A stretch of 64,000 nucleotides of DNA from an uncultured delta proteobacterium (GTDB lineage Bacteria; Desulfobacterota; Syntrophobacteria; Syntrophobacterales; Syntrophobacteraceae). The notes under the pieces are model-generated. The model searched no databases and had not been told where the DNA came from. It saw nothing but the letters and a program-made list of their open reading frames with translations. Made by a program: the position numbers and the translations under genes. Below are positions 806 through 45,950 of the stretch, one piece after another. The stretch covers positions 2,080,865-2,144,864 of the forward strand of contig CAVYEB010000002.1 in the NCBI GenBank assembly GCA_963767585.1. Reading direction: 5' to 3'. Position 1 is the stretch's first letter. Each line of letters starts with the position of its first letter.

Positions 806-826
806 CTCCTCAGTCCTCAGTCCTGT
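806..826 (-). repeat. GGACTGA heptamer array just downstream of the arsS-like gene
   Basis: ctcctcagtcctcagtcctg. Confidence 0.9.
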
Positions 827-835
827 CTTTTACGG

Positions 836-1789
836 TCACGCCGCAACAATGCTCCCGCCTCAAGTGAAGCCCGAGCCTGCGGTGCAGGCGTAGCAATGAT
901 CGCCTGTTACGATGGGCCTACCCTCTAAGGACATTTCGCGGATTTCAGAGATGTGTCTTTTACGGCCGCCATGGTGAAGTCCGGCCGCAAGGTTGAAATC
1001 ACAGTCGTAGAGAAATCCCTGCCAATCAACCGAAAGGGTGGTCCTGCACATCAATTGATCGATGGTACAGGGATTGAAGCTGTCTTCGAGTCTTTTTAGA
1101 TAGGCGGAGAGATTTCCGGAGACTTCCAGCCAGTTGCGGAATCGCCCGAGAGGCACATTGGCGAAGGTGAACAGGTTGGTGAAACTTACACCGTGTTTGC
1201 TTTCGAGTTCACGCCTGAACATGCGTTCCGCCTGCGCCTGCGCGGGCGGAAAGAAAGCCCCGGTCGGATTGGCTACAAGATCCAAGTTCAGCCCGGCGCC
1301 TTCCATCGCGTATCCATTGGCGTTCAGCAACTTGAGTGTCGAGATGCTCTTCCCCCACACTCCGGCCCCTCGCTGCGAATCTGTCCGGGGAGCGCTGGTC
1401 GATGGCAGAGAAGCCACTATCGTTACGCGGTGGCGCTTGTAAAGGTCGATCAGATATATAAATTCGGGGCGGGAGAGGGCGACCAGATTGGTGCGCACTA
1501 TCAGCTTGGGCGAAAGGGGTGCAAGTTCGGAAACAAGCCTTGGAAGGCTGGGCAGGAACTCAGGCGCGCCGCCCGTTATATCGAAGGAGGCGAACGAAAA
1601 ACGGCGGGCGCATGCGATGACTGCTTCGAGCGTCCGATCGTCCATCATCTCAGGCCGTGAAGGCCCGGCCTCCAGATGACAGTGGCGGCAGGCCAGATTG
1701 CATCTGAACCCCACGTTTATCTGCAAAACGGCCGCATTAACCCGCCGCAATTCCAGTCCGTGATTGTCAAGCTTTTCCCTGAAAGTCAT
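836..1789 (-). CDS. arsS: radical SAM/Cys-rich domain protein (ArsS-like); predicted selenoprotein with UGA 860-862 read as Sec and true stop at 836-838
   Basis: ORF 860..1789 has the CNLACRHCH radical-SAM box. It ends HCYACTAGSGFT-TGA-GGSIVAA-TGA, and the Cys forms of this family have Cys at that C-terminal position (recalled motif CTAGxGSSCGG). Confidence 0.75.
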
Positions 1790-1792
1790 CTC

Positions 1793-2125
1793 TCACATCG
1801 AAAGCTTTTCGGCTATCTTTCGCATCTGCACGCCATGCGCCAGTGACGCGCCTCCACGTATGGCGTTCGTAACGTGGATCGCTTCGGTCATTTCATCGAG
1901 GTTCGATCCCTTCTCCAGGCACGCCACAGTGTAGGCATCGATACAATAAGGACACTGAACCGCATGCGCCACTGCCAGGGCGATGAGCGCCTTTTCCCGT
2001 TCCGTCAGCGCCCCGTCTGCGAAGACCGCTCCGTAATAGTCGAAAAACTTCTTAGCCAACTCGGGAGCGCTTTTGCCGATTTCTTCGAATTTTGCCAGGT
2101 CTTGCGGGTCGTAATAGGTTTCCAC
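1793..2125 (-). CDS. AhpD-like / carboxymuconolactone decarboxylase family protein (peroxidase-like partner of ArsS-type genes)
   Basis: CPYC motif within ALIALAVAHAVQCPYCIDAY. GTG at 2123-2125 lies 7 nt after AAGGAGGA. The stop is 3 nt from the arsS-like ATG. Confidence 0.8.
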   Translation of the reverse strand: METYYDPQDLAKFEEIGKSAPELAKKFFDYYGAVFADGALTEREKALIALAVAHAVQCPYCIDAYTVACLEKGSNLDEMTEAIHVTNAIRGGASLAHGVQMRKIAEKLSM

Positions 2126-2350
2126 TAGTCTATCCTCCTTTTGACGGCCGGGTCCCATTTTACCACAAATTCTCTGCCCGGCGACAGAGTGTTTTGTATT
2201 CTCTCTGCAGGCTCCGGGACCGGGAACAGGGGTTTACCGAACCGGATCGGCCAAGTCATCGAACCCAATAGAAAAGCCCGCGTCAAACGGCGCGGGCATT
2301 GCTAACGCTACGAGCATTTACATGAGCAAAACTCTCATGCTCAACGCATC

Positions 2351-2432: not shown

Positions 2433-3590
2433 CTATGCTTTCAGTTCTTCTTTGACCGAAACGGCAATCTTGTAAAGCACGGTCAGGACGAAGAATCCGG
2501 TTGCCCAGATCCCGAGTGCTATCATGATCTCAAGCAACCTGGGCGAGTATTCGCGAACCTGGTCGAGCGGGTTTGGGATGAAGCCGGCCACGATGAGACC
2601 GACGCCTTTTTCAATATACATGGAAAAGAAGACGCAGACGGAGGCGGCGAGGAGCATCCTGTCATTTTTGCGAATGTCCGGGTGCAGGAGCAGCACTACC
2701 CCGGCTATTGCAAGTATGGCAAACAGCCACGAAAGCGGGACAAGTTTGTGATGGCCCTCAAGTCCTACAAACAGGTACTTGAGCGCGTTCATATGGTCCG
2801 GAATATTGCTGTAAAAAGCCGTAAAGAACTCCAGACCCACGAAGAAAACACTTATCAGCATGGCGTATGTCATGATCATCGACAGCTTGTCGATGGCTTC
2901 CTTACCCGGATCGAATTTGGTGTACTTTTTCACCAGGAAGGAAAGCATAATGAGCAGCGCCGGACCGGAGCAGAAAGCTGAAGCGAGAAAGCGCGCAGCC
3001 ATGATGGCGGTAAGCCAGTAATCTCTTGCCGGAAGACCGGCGTAGAGGAATGCCGTGACCGTGTGAATGCTGACCGCCCAGGGGATCGAGATGTAGATGA
3101 GCGGCTTTACCCATTTCGGGTAATGGGTCCCCTTGCGCTCGGCCTCCAGCACGTTCCAGCCAATTAGAATGTTCAGCAGAAGGTATCCGTTCAAAACGAT
3201 CATGTCCCAGAAAAGGATCGAATTGGGCGTGGGATAAATCAAGACGTTGAGCAGGCGCATCGGCTTGCCAAGGTCCACCACGATGAACATGAGACACATG
3301 GTGACGGCAGCTATGGCGAGAAATTCGCCCAAAATGGTAATTTTGCCAAATGCCTTCACGTCGTGCAGGTAATAAGGCAGCACGACCATGACCGCCGAGG
3401 CGGCCACACCGACCAGAAAGGTGAACTGGGCGATGTAGATCCCCCAGGAAACGTCCCTGCTAAGGCCGGTGATCGTAAGACCCCTGTTCCACTGGCTGAG
3501 GTAGGCGATAAAACCGAGCCCCATGAAGACGAGCAGGACCCCAAGCAGTTTTTTGTATCTTGTGCCTCCAGTAAGTGCTCTTTCAAGCAT
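2433..3590 (-). CDS. dsrP: DsrP, NrfD/PsrC-type integral membrane subunit
   Basis: 385-aa polytopic membrane ORF, last gene of the dsrM-K-J-O-P order. Confidence 0.85.
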   Translation of the reverse strand: MLERALTGGTRYKKLLGVLLVFMGLGFIAYLSQWNRGLTITGLSRDVSWGIYIAQFTFLVGVAASAVMVVLPYYLHDVKAFGKITILGEFLAIAAVTMCLMFIVVDLGKPMRLLNVLIYPTPNSILFWDMIVLNGYLLLNILIGWNVLEAERKGTHYPKWVKPLIYISIPWAVSIHTVTAFLYAGLPARDYWLTAIMAARFLASAFCSGPALLIMLSFLVKKYTKFDPGKEAIDKLSMIMTYAMLISVFFVGLEFFTAFYSNIPDHMNALKYLFVGLEGHHKLVPLSWLFAILAIAGVVLLLHPDIRKNDRMLLAASVCVFFSMYIEKGVGLIVAGFIPNPLDQVREYSPRLLEIMIALGIWATGFFVLTVLYKIAVSVKEELKA

Positions 3591-3610
3591 ATCCCTGTCT
3601 CCTTTGGAGA

Positions 3611-3693
3611 AGGCAAAAGTAAAAAGTAAAACGGCAAAATAGAAAAACTGATGATCTCTCCACTTTTACCTTTTACCTTTTGCCTTTTTACTT
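3611..3693. repeat. GGCAAAAGTAAAA word-hairpin in the dsrO / dsrP spacer
   Basis: aggcaaaagtaaaaagtaaaacggcaaaa - 23 nt - cttttaccttttaccttttgcctttttactt. Confidence 0.9.
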
Positions 3694-4474
3694 AAATGAT
3701 GTAATAGACGCCGGGCTCGGTTCCCAGCTCGGGTTTGCGCCTTATTGAAAACTGTGAAGCAAGGGCTTTTCTAACATCGGAATTCGGGTCTTCCAGGTCG
3801 CCGAATGAAAGCGCCTTGCATTTGCACGCCTCGACACACGCGGGAATCTTTCCAACCGCAAGCCTCTCTTCACAGAAGCTGCACTTCTCGACAACCCCCC
3901 GGTCCCTGGTTGGGAAGGTGGGGTTGAGCTCAGTTTTGATATATGGACGCGGGTCTCTGAAATTGAAGCTCCTGGCGCCGTAAGGGCAGGCGGCCATGCA
4001 ATACCTGCATCCGATGCAGCGGTGGAAATCCATCATCGTGATCCCGTCGGCCCTCTTGAATGTGGCCTTGGTGGGACAAACCCGCGTGCAAGGGGCATGA
4101 GTGCAGTGATTGCAAAGCAGGATGAAGGGTTTCTCTCTTATGGATTCGGGTTCCATGCCGCTTTCCTGCCCGGGGAAGACGTTCTCATACTTCGCCTCCC
4201 AGATCCACTTGATCTCTTCCTTCTCGGTGCCGATATCCGGAACGTTGTGGGTCGAATGGCAAACGAGCAAACAGTCCTGGCAACCCGCAGGTCCTTTTTC
4301 CCAGCACTTCTTCATGTCAATAGCCATCGCCCATCGCTTGGCGGTAAGGCCCTGGACATTCAATACGAACTTTGGCGCTTCGGTTTTGCCGAATGCATCG
4401 GCTGCCTTCAAAGATCCCAGTCCAAGCGCGCAAACGCCGCCGATTTTCAGAAAGGTCCTTCTACTGGTTTCCAT
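3692..4474 (-). CDS. dsrO: DsrO, periplasmic 4Fe-4S ferredoxin-like subunit with Tat signal
   Basis: Start trimmed to METSRRTFLKIGGVCALGLG (twin-arginine). Multiple CxxCxxCxxxCP clusters. The ATG overlaps the dsrJ TAA (TAATG). Confidence 0.85.
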   Translation of the reverse strand: METSRRTFLKIGGVCALGLGSLKAADAFGKTEAPKFVLNVQGLTAKRWAMAIDMKKCWEKGPAGCQDCLLVCHSTHNVPDIGTEKEEIKWIWEAKYENVFPGQESGMEPESIREKPFILLCNHCTHAPCTRVCPTKATFKRADGITMMDFHRCIGCRYCMAACPYGARSFNFRDPRPYIKTELNPTFPTRDRGVVEKCSFCEERLAVGKIPACVEACKCKALSFGDLEDPNSDVRKALASQFSIRRKPELGTEPGVYYII

Positions 4475-4977
4475 TACTTGTTCTCCTTTCCAAAAGTGGC
4501 GAAAAGCGACGAATGGGAAGCCGGAAAAGAACGGTTTTCGACCGTTGCTTTCTGCTCCGCGCTCCCTGGTTTTTCGCTCGGAGCTATATGGCAATTCCAG
4601 CAGTAAGGATCGGCTCCCTTTTCGAGGCCGGCGTAGTTATGGCACTGGTCGCAGAATTGAGACTTGTTGGAGTGACACTTCATGCACTCGTTCTGAAGAC
4701 TCATTTCATAGGTTTTGCCGTCGCCTGCCACATACATTCTCTTGCCGTTCCGGACAACCTGTGTTCTCCAGTCGTTCAGAACCTTCATATGTTCGGTGAT
4801 CATCTGGTCTTTTGGCAGCACGCACTGCTTGTTGATCATCTTGCTGATCACCGGAGTATCGATCTTGGGGTCCGGCGGCGGAGCGGCCTTGCCGTGAGTG
4901 AACCATACCGGGAAAGTTGCCAGCACGATGAAAACGATCAGGCCGACAAGGATATATTTTCCGTCATATATCTTCAT
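4474..4977 (-). CDS. dsrJ: DsrJ, membrane-anchored triheme cytochrome c
   Basis: Three CxxCH motifs (CMKCH, CDQCH, CWNCH). Start MKIYDGKY follows GGAGGA. N-terminal anchor helix. Confidence 0.85.
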   Translation of the reverse strand: MKIYDGKYILVGLIVFIVLATFPVWFTHGKAAPPPDPKIDTPVISKMINKQCVLPKDQMITEHMKVLNDWRTQVVRNGKRMYVAGDGKTYEMSLQNECMKCHSNKSQFCDQCHNYAGLEKGADPYCWNCHIAPSEKPGSAEQKATVENRSFPASHSSLFATFGKENK

Positions 4978-6583
4978 TCTCACTATCCTCCATTCCTGGC
5001 AAAGGCTCACCGCGCAGGTCGGTGGTCCTCTCGGTTTCGCCTTCCATCACCATGGCGTTGGCCACCAGTTCGTGAACTCCGTAGACGGTTACACCCGGGA
5101 CCCAGTAATCCATCGAGGCGGTAAGCACTGCACGGTCGATTGCGCAAATGGTCGCAAGCGCGTTCACGCCGTGCTGCTCACGAACGTGGCGTACTGCATT
5201 GGCCCGGGGCAATCCGCCCCGCATTCTCATTTCCATGAACTCGTCGTTGTTCAAGCCCGACCCCGAACCGCAACAGAAAGTCTGTTCCCGGATCGTGTTG
5301 GGCGGCATCTCGTGGAAGTTGTTGCAAACGTTATTGATCACGTAACGCGGTTCTTCAAGAAAGCCCATGCCGCGCGCAGTGTTGCAGGAATCATGGTAAG
5401 TCACTACCAAATTATCGTTGCGGCTCGCGTCGAGTTTTAACTTGCCGTTTTTTATCAGATCGGCCGTAAACTCCACGATGTGAATCATTTTGGTGGACGT
5501 GGCGTTGTCGAACCTGGTGCCGGTAATGGGAGATACGGGCACTTCGAGAAAATCCGCAGGTCCGTTCATCGTATCCATATACTGGTTTATTACACGCCAC
5601 ATGTGGCCGCATTCACCGCCGATGATGTATTTTACGCCCAGCCTTTTCGCTTCGGCGTACATCTTGGCGTTGAGGCGCTTCATCATCTCGTGAGAGGTAA
5701 AAAGGCCGAAATTTCCGCCCTCGGACGCATAGGTGCTCCAGGTGTAATCGAGCCCCATCTCGTGGAAAAGCATCAGGTATCCCATAAGAGTATAAGTGCC
5801 GGGATCTGCGAAAACGTCACCCGAGGGAGTGACGAACAGGATCTCGGCCCCCTTGCGGTTGAAAGTCGGCTCGCACCGTATTCCGTTGACCGCCTCGATT
5901 TCATCTACGAAAAACTCGATCATGTCCTTGAATGCGTGAGGCTGAATGCCGAGGTGGTTGCCGTTTTGATAGCAATTGGCCACCGGGCCCACGACCCAGT
6001 CGATGTTCAGGCCTAAAAGGTTCAAAAGTTCCCGGCCGATAATCGTAACCTCCGCCGTATCGATTCCGTAGGGACAGAAAAGCGAGCAACGGCGGCATTC
6101 CGTGCATTGGAAAAAGTACATGAACCATTCTTTGATCACGTCTTCGGTAAGCTCGCGGGCGCCAACCATTTGGCCCATGATCTTCCCGGCAAGAGAGAAA
6201 TTCTTGCGGTAGACCGACCTCAGAAGCTCAGCCCTGAGCACGGGCATGTTCTTCGGGTCGCCCGAACCAAGGTAGAAGTGGCACTTGTCGGAGCAGGCGC
6301 CGCATCGCACGCATATGTCCATGAAAAGTTTCAGCGAGCGGTATTTGTCCAGCCGTTCCCTCAGGCCTTCCAGAATGATTTGTTTCCAGTTGGCAGGCAG
6401 TTTCCAGTCTTCATCGAGCGGAGACCATTCCCTGGGGTTTGGAAGTCCGACGACTTCCAGGTTCTTCGCTTTTCCGGGATAGCTGAAATTTCCAGGCCGG
6501 AACACGGCCGGAGTGTCCATCCATCCGCTTTGGGGAAATGGATGTTCTATTGGTAGTTCGGTTGCTTTGGGGATCTTGGCCAT
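4964..6583 (-). CDS. dsrK: DsrK, HdrD-like iron-sulfur (CCG domain) catalytic subunit
   Basis: 539 aa with CxxCxxCxxxC clusters and C-terminal CCG-type Cys motifs, positioned between dsrM and dsrJ. Confidence 0.88.
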   Translation of the reverse strand: MAKIPKATELPIEHPFPQSGWMDTPAVFRPGNFSYPGKAKNLEVVGLPNPREWSPLDEDWKLPANWKQIILEGLRERLDKYRSLKLFMDICVRCGACSDKCHFYLGSGDPKNMPVLRAELLRSVYRKNFSLAGKIMGQMVGARELTEDVIKEWFMYFFQCTECRRCSLFCPYGIDTAEVTIIGRELLNLLGLNIDWVVGPVANCYQNGNHLGIQPHAFKDMIEFFVDEIEAVNGIRCEPTFNRKGAEILFVTPSGDVFADPGTYTLMGYLMLFHEMGLDYTWSTYASEGGNFGLFTSHEMMKRLNAKMYAEAKRLGVKYIIGGECGHMWRVINQYMDTMNGPADFLEVPVSPITGTRFDNATSTKMIHIVEFTADLIKNGKLKLDASRNDNLVVTYHDSCNTARGMGFLEEPRYVINNVCNNFHEMPPNTIREQTFCCGSGSGLNNDEFMEMRMRGGLPRANAVRHVREQHGVNALATICAIDRAVLTASMDYWVPGVTVYGVHELVANAMVMEGETERTTDLRGEPLPGMEDSENEDI

Positions 6584-45128: not shown

Positions 45129-45875
45129 TCACCTGTTTTCCTCCTGGTAAGGGGAATCCATTTTGTCGAACCGATCGGGGACCTTCATACAGGATGTGAA
45201 GTCCATCGCTTGTGCGCCGGTGGACGTTTCGGCCAGGCATTTCAGGACCTTGATGGTATCGGCCGGTTCAGGCCTTACGGTGTAGTCTGCGTTGACGTCG
45301 GCGGAGCGAATTATCCCCGACCGATCGATTACGAAGCGTCCAGGCATAGGCAGTGTCCAGGATTCATCTCCGTTAAACTTTTCAAGGTCAACCCCGAAGC
45401 TGAGGTAGACTTTGCGCAAATCTTCCGGGAGTTGATAAACCAGGTTGAACTTGCGTGCCACCCGATTGCCGGGATCGCTCAACAACTGCAGATTCAACCC
45501 CTTTTCGTTGGCAAACCTGCGATTGAATTCTTCGAGTTGAGGCGAAACGGCTACAAGGGACGCACCAAATGATGCCATCTCGGGAAGGGCCTTTTCAAGA
45601 GCTGCCAGCTCCAGATTGCAGTATGGTCACCATCCTCCCCTGTAAAAGCTCAAGACAACCGGGCCTCGTTCCAACAGTGAGCCAAGGCTGACGAGAGAGT
45701 CTTGTGTATCCTTAAGAGAAAAATCGGGGGCCCTGTCCCCGACTTTTAGGACCTTCTCTTTAAGGCCGGACTTTTCGAGTTCTTCGGTCGCCTGGTGCAT
45801 GATCGCCCGTTTTTCCTCAGGAATCCTTGCTTCCGACCTTGCCTTCAGCGCATTTAATTCTTCTTGAAGTGTCAT
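45129..45875 (-). CDS. peroxiredoxin-like (PRX_like2 / AhpC-TSA fold) thiol-disulfide oxidoreductase; predicted selenoprotein with UGA 45627-45629 read as Sec
   Basis: Track ORFs 45627..45917 and 45129..45578 share one frame. Hand translation across the gap gives SFYRGGW-TGA-PYCNLELAALEKALPEMASFG, where Cys forms have WCPYC. Start MTLQEEL follows GAGAGGAG. Confidence 0.8.
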
Positions 45876-45910
45876 CTCAATTCTCCTCTCACTCATAATA
45901 TATACATGAA

Positions 45911-45950
45911 AAGGCAATTTGGAGTTGGGAATGAGGAATTAGGAATTGAG
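45911..45950 (+). repeat. AATTAGGAATG-family array
   Basis: aaggcaatttggagttgggaatgaggaattaggaattgag. Confidence 0.9.

Follow-up and report, generated by a model that had tools for sequence, protein, structure and literature searches.

The ahpD-arsS locus

The window, by which we mean the whole 64,000-nucleotide stretch of DNA that was analysed, carries near its start two neighbouring genes on the minus strand, one for an AhpD-like CxxC protein and the other for a radical SAM protein whose reading frame appears to continue through an in-frame UGA. The features discussed below are as follows, the selenocysteine (Sec), stop and SECIS assignments being the predicted ones.

830..846, minus strand: SECIS-like hairpin UUGCGG-CGUGA-CCGUAA, from the minimum-energy fold with the nearest 12 nt excluded
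836..838, minus strand: predicted true arsS stop, UGA, in the hairpin's apical loop, from sequence and translation
839..1789, minus strand: arsS, with the UGA taken as a sense codon; the predicted product is a radical SAM / DUF3641 protein of 317 aa whose residue 310 is Sec
860..862, minus strand: in-frame UGA, predicted Sec codon (U310, motif G-F-T-U), from the orthologue alignment column of TGA versus TGC/TGT
1796..2125, minus strand: AhpD-like / CMD-family partner, 110 aa, CPYC, stop at 1793-1795; matches TIGR04169 and PF02627 (CMD)
2276..2297, minus strand: terminator-like hairpin and T-run after an NrfD/DsrP-like gene, 7 G-C pairs followed by TTTTCTATTG
2433-3590, minus strand: NrfD-like gene
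3692-4594, minus strand: Fer4 gene
4474-5010, minus strand: cytochrome-like gene
4964-6583, minus strand: DsrK-like gene

The radical SAM open reading frame that ends at the first TGA (860..1789, minus strand) encodes 309 amino acids with the C-terminus ...GDHCYACTAGSGFT; the TGA that comes next is at 862-860. Read on in frame, the sequence is GGC GGG AGC ATT GTT GCG GCG up to a second TGA at 838-836, and translation with TGA as U gives the C-terminus ...CTAGSGFT-U-GGSIVAA-stop. The initial annotation of this DNA had described the 309-aa frame, the TGA at 860-862 and the continuation to the TGA at 836-838, and the sequence and its translation confirm that description.

Assignment of the protein to the ArsS (TIGR04167) type, also proposed at the outset, is borne out by the NCBIfam profile search. 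TIGR04167 scores 379.5 bits against the 317-aa read-through protein, where the curated cut-off is 300 bits, and aligns ArsS residues 14-314 with profile positions 2-303 of 303, the match crossing the TGA to reach the end of the profile. A six-frame search of the genome with the same model scored the arsS locus at 374.5 bits with one TGA inside the match, and PF12345 (DUF3641, a Cys-rich domain) covers residues 181-313 at positions 2-134 of 134 (E = 1.6e-50). The radical SAM CxxxCxxC motif is present near the N-terminus (FRCNLACRHCH), and PF04055 gives 27.8 bits, slightly below its gathering score of 29.5. Four cysteines are conserved in the C-terminal domain (C247, C262, C296 and C299), and near the C-terminus lies a G-x-x-[C/U] site, which is G-F-T-U here and G-F-T-C or G-S-S-C in homologues. 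A sequence search of the PDB found no solved ArsS-family structure, the sole match being a weak one to a radical SAM protein (E = 3e-4). The locus at 839..1789 on the minus strand is an ArsS-family member of the TIGR04167 type.

The partner gene lies upstream of arsS in the same direction, with a GTG start at 2125 preceded by AGGAGG 8 nt upstream, a TGA stop at 1795-1793 and a gap of 3 nt to the arsS ATG at 1789. TIGR04169 gives 193.8 bits for its product (cut-off 120), which upholds the earlier description of an AhpD-like, CPYC-containing partner, since that model is defined by association with this type of radical SAM protein. In a six-frame survey of 96 genomes of the same order, a TIGR04169 gene was found in 39, including 36 of the 40 genomes with ArsS; in 28 of the 39 it is a same-strand neighbour of arsS, on the upstream side in 12 and on the downstream side in 16. 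The 39 copies are all Cys forms free of in-frame stops. In three genomes (G073, G079 and G081) 8-10 kb separates arsS from the AhpD-like partner, both being on one strand.

Because the terminator-like hairpin at 2297-2276 closes the preceding gene, ahpD-arsS looks like a transcription unit of its own. Directly upstream of the pair is a dsrMKJOP-like operon (window 2433-6583, minus strand), and the equal order Fer4-NrfD-(ParE)-CMD-ArsS is seen in one relative (G082, locus L045), where a ParE toxin gene stands between NrfD and CMD. On the other side of the pair, directly 3′ of the arsS hairpin, the GGACTGA array that had been reported after the UGA is real but small, with 2.6 copies at window 807-824. 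It lies outside the SECIS-like element, is absent at this site in relatives and is one of many heptamer arrays in the genome.

The in-frame UGA in orthologues

The survey yielded 41 ArsS genes in 40 of the 96 genomes; 35 of the 41 have one in-frame TGA and the other six have none. A comparison with orthologues had been suggested in the initial annotation. The 3′ ends of 30 of the 41 were aligned, 24 with TGA and six with Cys. The TGA falls in the same single column in every one of the 24 TGA rows, and each of the other six has TGC or TGT there. The position following G-x-x, which the initial annotation had singled out for comparison, is thus occupied by Cys in homologues of the Cys type and by TGA in the others, a pattern that supports its reading of the UGA as Sec in ...CTAGSGFTUGGSIVAA.

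The codons beyond the TGA behave as coding sequence. The first specifies Gly in 24 of 24 rows (GGC 15, GGG 6, GGA 2, GGT 1), as does the second, with four synonymous codons in use; the third is Ser, Ala or Thr, and the fourth is Ile throughout (24/24; ATC 16, ATT 4, ATA 4), after which comes a variable tail of 2-10 residues. Since invariant residues are held while their codons vary synonymously, the stretch after the UGA is under purifying selection at the protein level. Full-length Cys-type ArsS homologues from metagenomes do not stop at the equivalent of ...SGFT, which had been named as the result that would speak against Sec, and instead have the C-terminus ...CTAGAGFTCGGSIAA, near-identical to the window's ...CTAGSGFT-U-GGSIVAA.

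The TGA could also have arisen as an error of sequencing or assembly, or by a recent mutation that inactivated a TGC or TGT Cys codon. The codons are one base apart, and one close pair of genomes differs in exactly this way, with TGC in G052 and TGA in G067. However, the TGA is common to 35 of the 41 orthologues, in independent assemblies, and it comes with a downstream hairpin that the divergent Cys forms do not have, and we attach a negligible probability to this explanation. As to the pair itself, the arsS 3′ ends of the two genomes (loci L038 in G052 and L036 in G067) are nearly identical apart from the Sec/Cys codon, and the Cys form of G052 retains the hairpin AGACC-UAGGGUAU-GGUCU. That this Cys-form 3′ end matches the Sec form, hairpin included, suggests a recent switch from Sec to Cys with a leftover SECIS.

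The UGA might instead be read through without Sec, by near-cognate insertion of Trp or Cys or by a Cys-tRNA(Sec), leaving an ordinary residue at this position. The identity of the inserted residue is not readable from the sequence, and low-level read-through of UGA occurs in bacteria. Against this, the aligned residue in the TGA-free homologues is Cys in six cases out of six, which is the classic signature of a Sec/Cys site, selenoprotein catalogues already include the family, and elsewhere in the genome TGA is an ordinary stop, terminating 1415 long ORFs. Insertion of an ordinary residue is in our view extremely improbable, and Sec remains the favoured assignment for this codon.

Nor is the Sec machinery absent from the genome, the other result that the initial annotation had named as contrary to its reading. 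On the genome's contigs C1 and C2 we found the following genes.

C1:725999-727897: selB, 373 bits, above the curated cut-off
C2:520943-522310: selA, 630.6 bits, above the curated cut-off
C2:2493210-2494130, minus strand: selD with in-frame TGA, 383.1 bits, above the curated cut-off
C2:3616502-3617425, plus strand: selD with in-frame TGA, 363.3 bits, above the curated cut-off
C2:3435444-3435542, minus strand: tRNA-Sec, intact, Rfam 74 bits, 8-bp acceptor stem, UCA anticodon
C2:49309-49406, minus strand: second tRNA-Sec-like gene, 54.5 bits

With selA, selB, selD in two copies and tRNA-Sec all found, the genome is equipped for Sec decoding. The second tRNA-Sec-like gene is identical to the intact copy in its 3′ half, but its 5′ half has lost 1 nt and shows three mismatches in stems; judged by this comparison it is probably a decaying duplicate. 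Both selD genes have a TGA at the GU/CGU position together with a hairpin, and selenophosphate synthetase therefore appears to be a duplicated selenoprotein here. The arsS gene would be one more selenoprotein in a selenoprotein-rich genome, alongside the two Sec-type selD genes, a Prx-like gene and two Sec-type ArsM-like genes.

The hairpin downstream of the UGA

The stem of the hairpin at 830-846 has 6 bp, one of them G.U, and the 5-nt loop is CGUGA, with G-U at loop positions 2-3; the hairpin starts 13 nt past the UGA, and the spacing from UGA to apical loop is 19 nt. It was the minimum-energy fold at every size of folding window once the 12 nt nearest the UGA were excluded, which was done because a ribosome with the UGA in its A site would be expected to cover them. 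The free energy is -5.8 kcal/mol, and -7.7 is attained only with a distant 3-bp closing helix.

The legend to Fig. 2 of PMC13188914 lists as criteria for bSECIS elements a loop of 3-9 nt, an upper stem of 4-16 bp, a G in the first two loop positions, a spacing of 16-37 nt from UGA to loop and a free energy of -7.5 kcal/mol or lower. The hairpin at 830-846 fits in its loop (5 nt), stem (6 bp), loop G (position 2) and spacing (19 nt), and at -5.8 kcal/mol it misses the energy threshold of -7.5, as do 10 of 23 TGA-type ArsS relatives, which are also weaker than that value. Because the Sec would be only seven codons from the end of the protein, an element with bSECIS geometry lies mostly past the last sense codons, with the stop in its loop.

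The comparative evidence comes from a scan anchored on position, in which the loop starts at nt 22-25, counting the U of the UGA as 1. The controls were the 1415 long ORFs of this genome that end in an ordinary TGA. Counting ungapped hairpins only, 18 of the 24 TGA orthologues have 5 bp or more there, as against 14.6% of controls, and 11 of 24 have 6 bp or more, as against 5.3%. The other six TGA rows have bulged or shorter hairpins in the same place. At least six differing stems occupy this position across clades, namely UUGCGG/CCGCAA, CUGCCC/GGGCAG, AUCCUG/CAGGGU, GCCUA/UAGGU, AGACCC/GGGUCU and GGCCC/GGGCC. Among the six Cys-type rows only one, that of G052, has such a hairpin. The hairpins in the two selD genes have loops starting at nt 20 and nt 25 after the UGA, distances like those in arsS. 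A Prx-like gene with ..GGWUPYC.. in the same window (about 45129-45917, minus strand) is followed by a hairpin, GGAGCU-GGC-AGCUCU, whose loop starts at nt 24 after the UGA.

In a free-RNA fold of the 76 nt that follow the UGA, z was +0.68 and the hairpin obtained began 1 nt past the UGA; this alternative is 1.2 kcal/mol more stable than the conserved hairpin, to which the free fold gives only about 10% pair probability. [quoted passage not shown] Among shuffled sequences, 18% gave an equal hairpin score when position was unconstrained. RNAalifold found no consensus pairs in an ungapped 45-nt alignment of the 24 TGA rows, because loop lengths vary from 3 to 9 nt, and an Rfam gathering scan of the window matched no SECIS family and returned one tRNA only. 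A covariance model with the geometry of the window's hairpin (R1) recovered 24 of 24 sites and aligned them without gaps; as that alignment is gapless and structurally no better, it was not used for pair counts. Given the RNAalifold result and the lack of gain from the covariance model, the covariation argument takes the form of the position-anchored scan and not of a formal test.

The initial annotation had reported no convincing SECIS by eye in this stretch. A positionally conserved hairpin is nevertheless present at 830-846, weak as it is at -5.8 kcal/mol; a short and thermodynamically weak element is easily overlooked by eye. Weak when taken alone, the hairpin becomes a credible candidate SECIS through the conservation of its position among orthologues.

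These data also bear on the view that translation really ends at the TGA at 860-862, in which case ArsS would be a 309-aa protein without the last Cys/Sec and the similarity downstream a relic. Gene callers do give this product (P0002, 309 aa), many homologues in public collections have 308-312 aa, and the hairpin is weak by itself. The collection entry for this gene and those of most close relatives, at 308-312 aa with 97% coverage, are cut at the TGA by the gene callers. A relic would not hold Gly-Gly-x-Ile through synonymous changes in 24 lineages, nor would it hold a hairpin at a fixed distance with differing stems; the Cys-type homologues have all preserved both Cys and tail, and the genome has the whole Sec machinery. 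Termination at 860-862 is therefore very unlikely. From the family match, the alignment, the position of the hairpin and the Sec machinery taken together we consider it very probable that the UGA at 860-862 is decoded as Sec, giving a 317-aa ArsS product.

Arsenic chemistry and relation to known systems

As summarised in PMC13598754, ArsS reductively cleaves SAM and the resulting 5′-deoxyadenosyl radical adenosylates dimethylarsenite, DMAs(III); the product is given there, and in bioRxiv 10.1101/2024.02.01.577332, as 5′-deoxy-5′-dimethylarsinoyl-adenosine (DDMAA). An activity of this kind is inferred for the window's ArsS by analogy with the characterised Cys-type member, and its putative role in arsenosugar formation is taken from the family name. 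Three ArsM genes in the genome are relevant here.

C1:260446-261273: Cys-type arsenite methyltransferase ArsM, 359.5 bits with NF008823
C2:4920914-4921741, minus strand: ArsM-like paralogue with TGA at a conserved Cys position (..DSCU..)
C2:3961059-3961733, plus strand: ArsM-like paralogue with TGA at a conserved Cys position (..WAKUQGGAIP..)

The TGA inside the best ArsM match, at C1:260446-261273, was considered and set aside as the ordinary stop codon of that gene. With NF041537, the model for an ArsM/AhpD-domain selenoprotein, the paralogue at C2:3961059-3961733 aligns over no more than the N-terminal 248 of the 345 positions. None of the three ArsM genes of the genome reaches the cut-off of NF038099, the arsenosugar-type ArsM model, and the physiological product of ArsS is for that reason less certain here than in cyanobacteria.

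A scheme for the locus can be proposed as follows. The segment 836-2125 on the minus strand would act as a two-gene unit, in which the TIGR04169 CxxC protein is followed 3 nt on by arsS. The hairpin at 830-846 would recruit SelB and Sec-tRNA(Sec) to the arsS UGA at 860-862, and translation would proceed through seven more codons (GGSIVAA) to the stop at 836-838 in the hairpin loop, yielding the 317-aa product; under selenium shortage a truncated 309-aa ArsS without the Sec residue would be expected. The C-terminal Sec or Cys, on a short flexible tail, probably contacts trivalent arsenic or passes redox equivalents to and from the CxxC partner, and the AhpD-like protein is a plausible redox partner of ArsS. 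The Sec or Cys is a plausible ligand or carrier of arsenic because a thiolate or selenolate could occupy the one free valence of DMAs(III) and because the tail would sit beside four conserved cysteines.

We also entertain, as an unlikely alternative, that the pair may not make arsenosugars, and that the Sec tail is a covalent Se-As (or Se-S) carrier which delivers a trivalent metalloid to the radical SAM site and is recycled by the CxxC partner. This idea arises because no arsenosugar-type ArsM reaches the cut-off and because, in at least two genomes, a dsrMKJOP-like operon directly precedes the pair. If true, it would represent a selenium-dependent step of anaerobic organoarsenic chemistry that is biochemically undescribed.

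That arsS is very probably a selenoprotein gene is an ordinary finding, since catalogues of selenoproteins already contain the family. TIGR04167 (rSAM_SeCys) bears the NCBI product name "arsenosugar biosynthesis radical SAM (seleno)protein ArsS", and two reviews list the "Radical SAM domain protein" of TIGR04167 as a predicted prokaryotic selenoprotein with AAR34688.1 as exemplar and GxxU as motif (PMC13188914 for the motif). PMC9312934 credits the prediction to Zhang and Gladyshev (2005, Bioinformatics 21:2580). The main value of the present analysis is a correction of annotation, as gene calls end ArsS at 309 aa and so lose the residue that is probably the most important for its chemistry. 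It is a further case in which selenium use is tied to the handling of arsenic in anaerobes, and it reveals no new mechanism.

Set against known systems, the window's protein shares with the TIGR04167 family a full-length match, the CxxxCxxC motif, DUF3641, GxxU near the C-terminus and a TIGR04169 partner. Nothing structural sets it apart, although the window's pair follows a dsrMKJOP-like operon. The characterised Cys-type ArsS (PMC13598754) belongs to the same family by profile and the cysteine positions of the C-terminal domain are kept, whereas the last conserved Cys would be Sec in the window's protein; the host of the former is a cyanobacterium, in contrast to the window's host, which seems to be an anaerobe with dsr-type genes. 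The partner resembles TIGR04169 (perox_w_seleSAM), an arsenosugar biosynthesis-associated peroxidase-like protein of the AhpD/CMD fold, in its CPYC and its position beside arsS, and no difference was seen. The hairpin agrees with the bSECIS consensus in its loop, stem, loop G and U, and spacing, and departs from it in its energy of -5.8 kcal/mol and in having the true stop within the loop. Save for the generic SECIS energy threshold, the window's ArsS fits the known selenoprotein family in all the respects tested.
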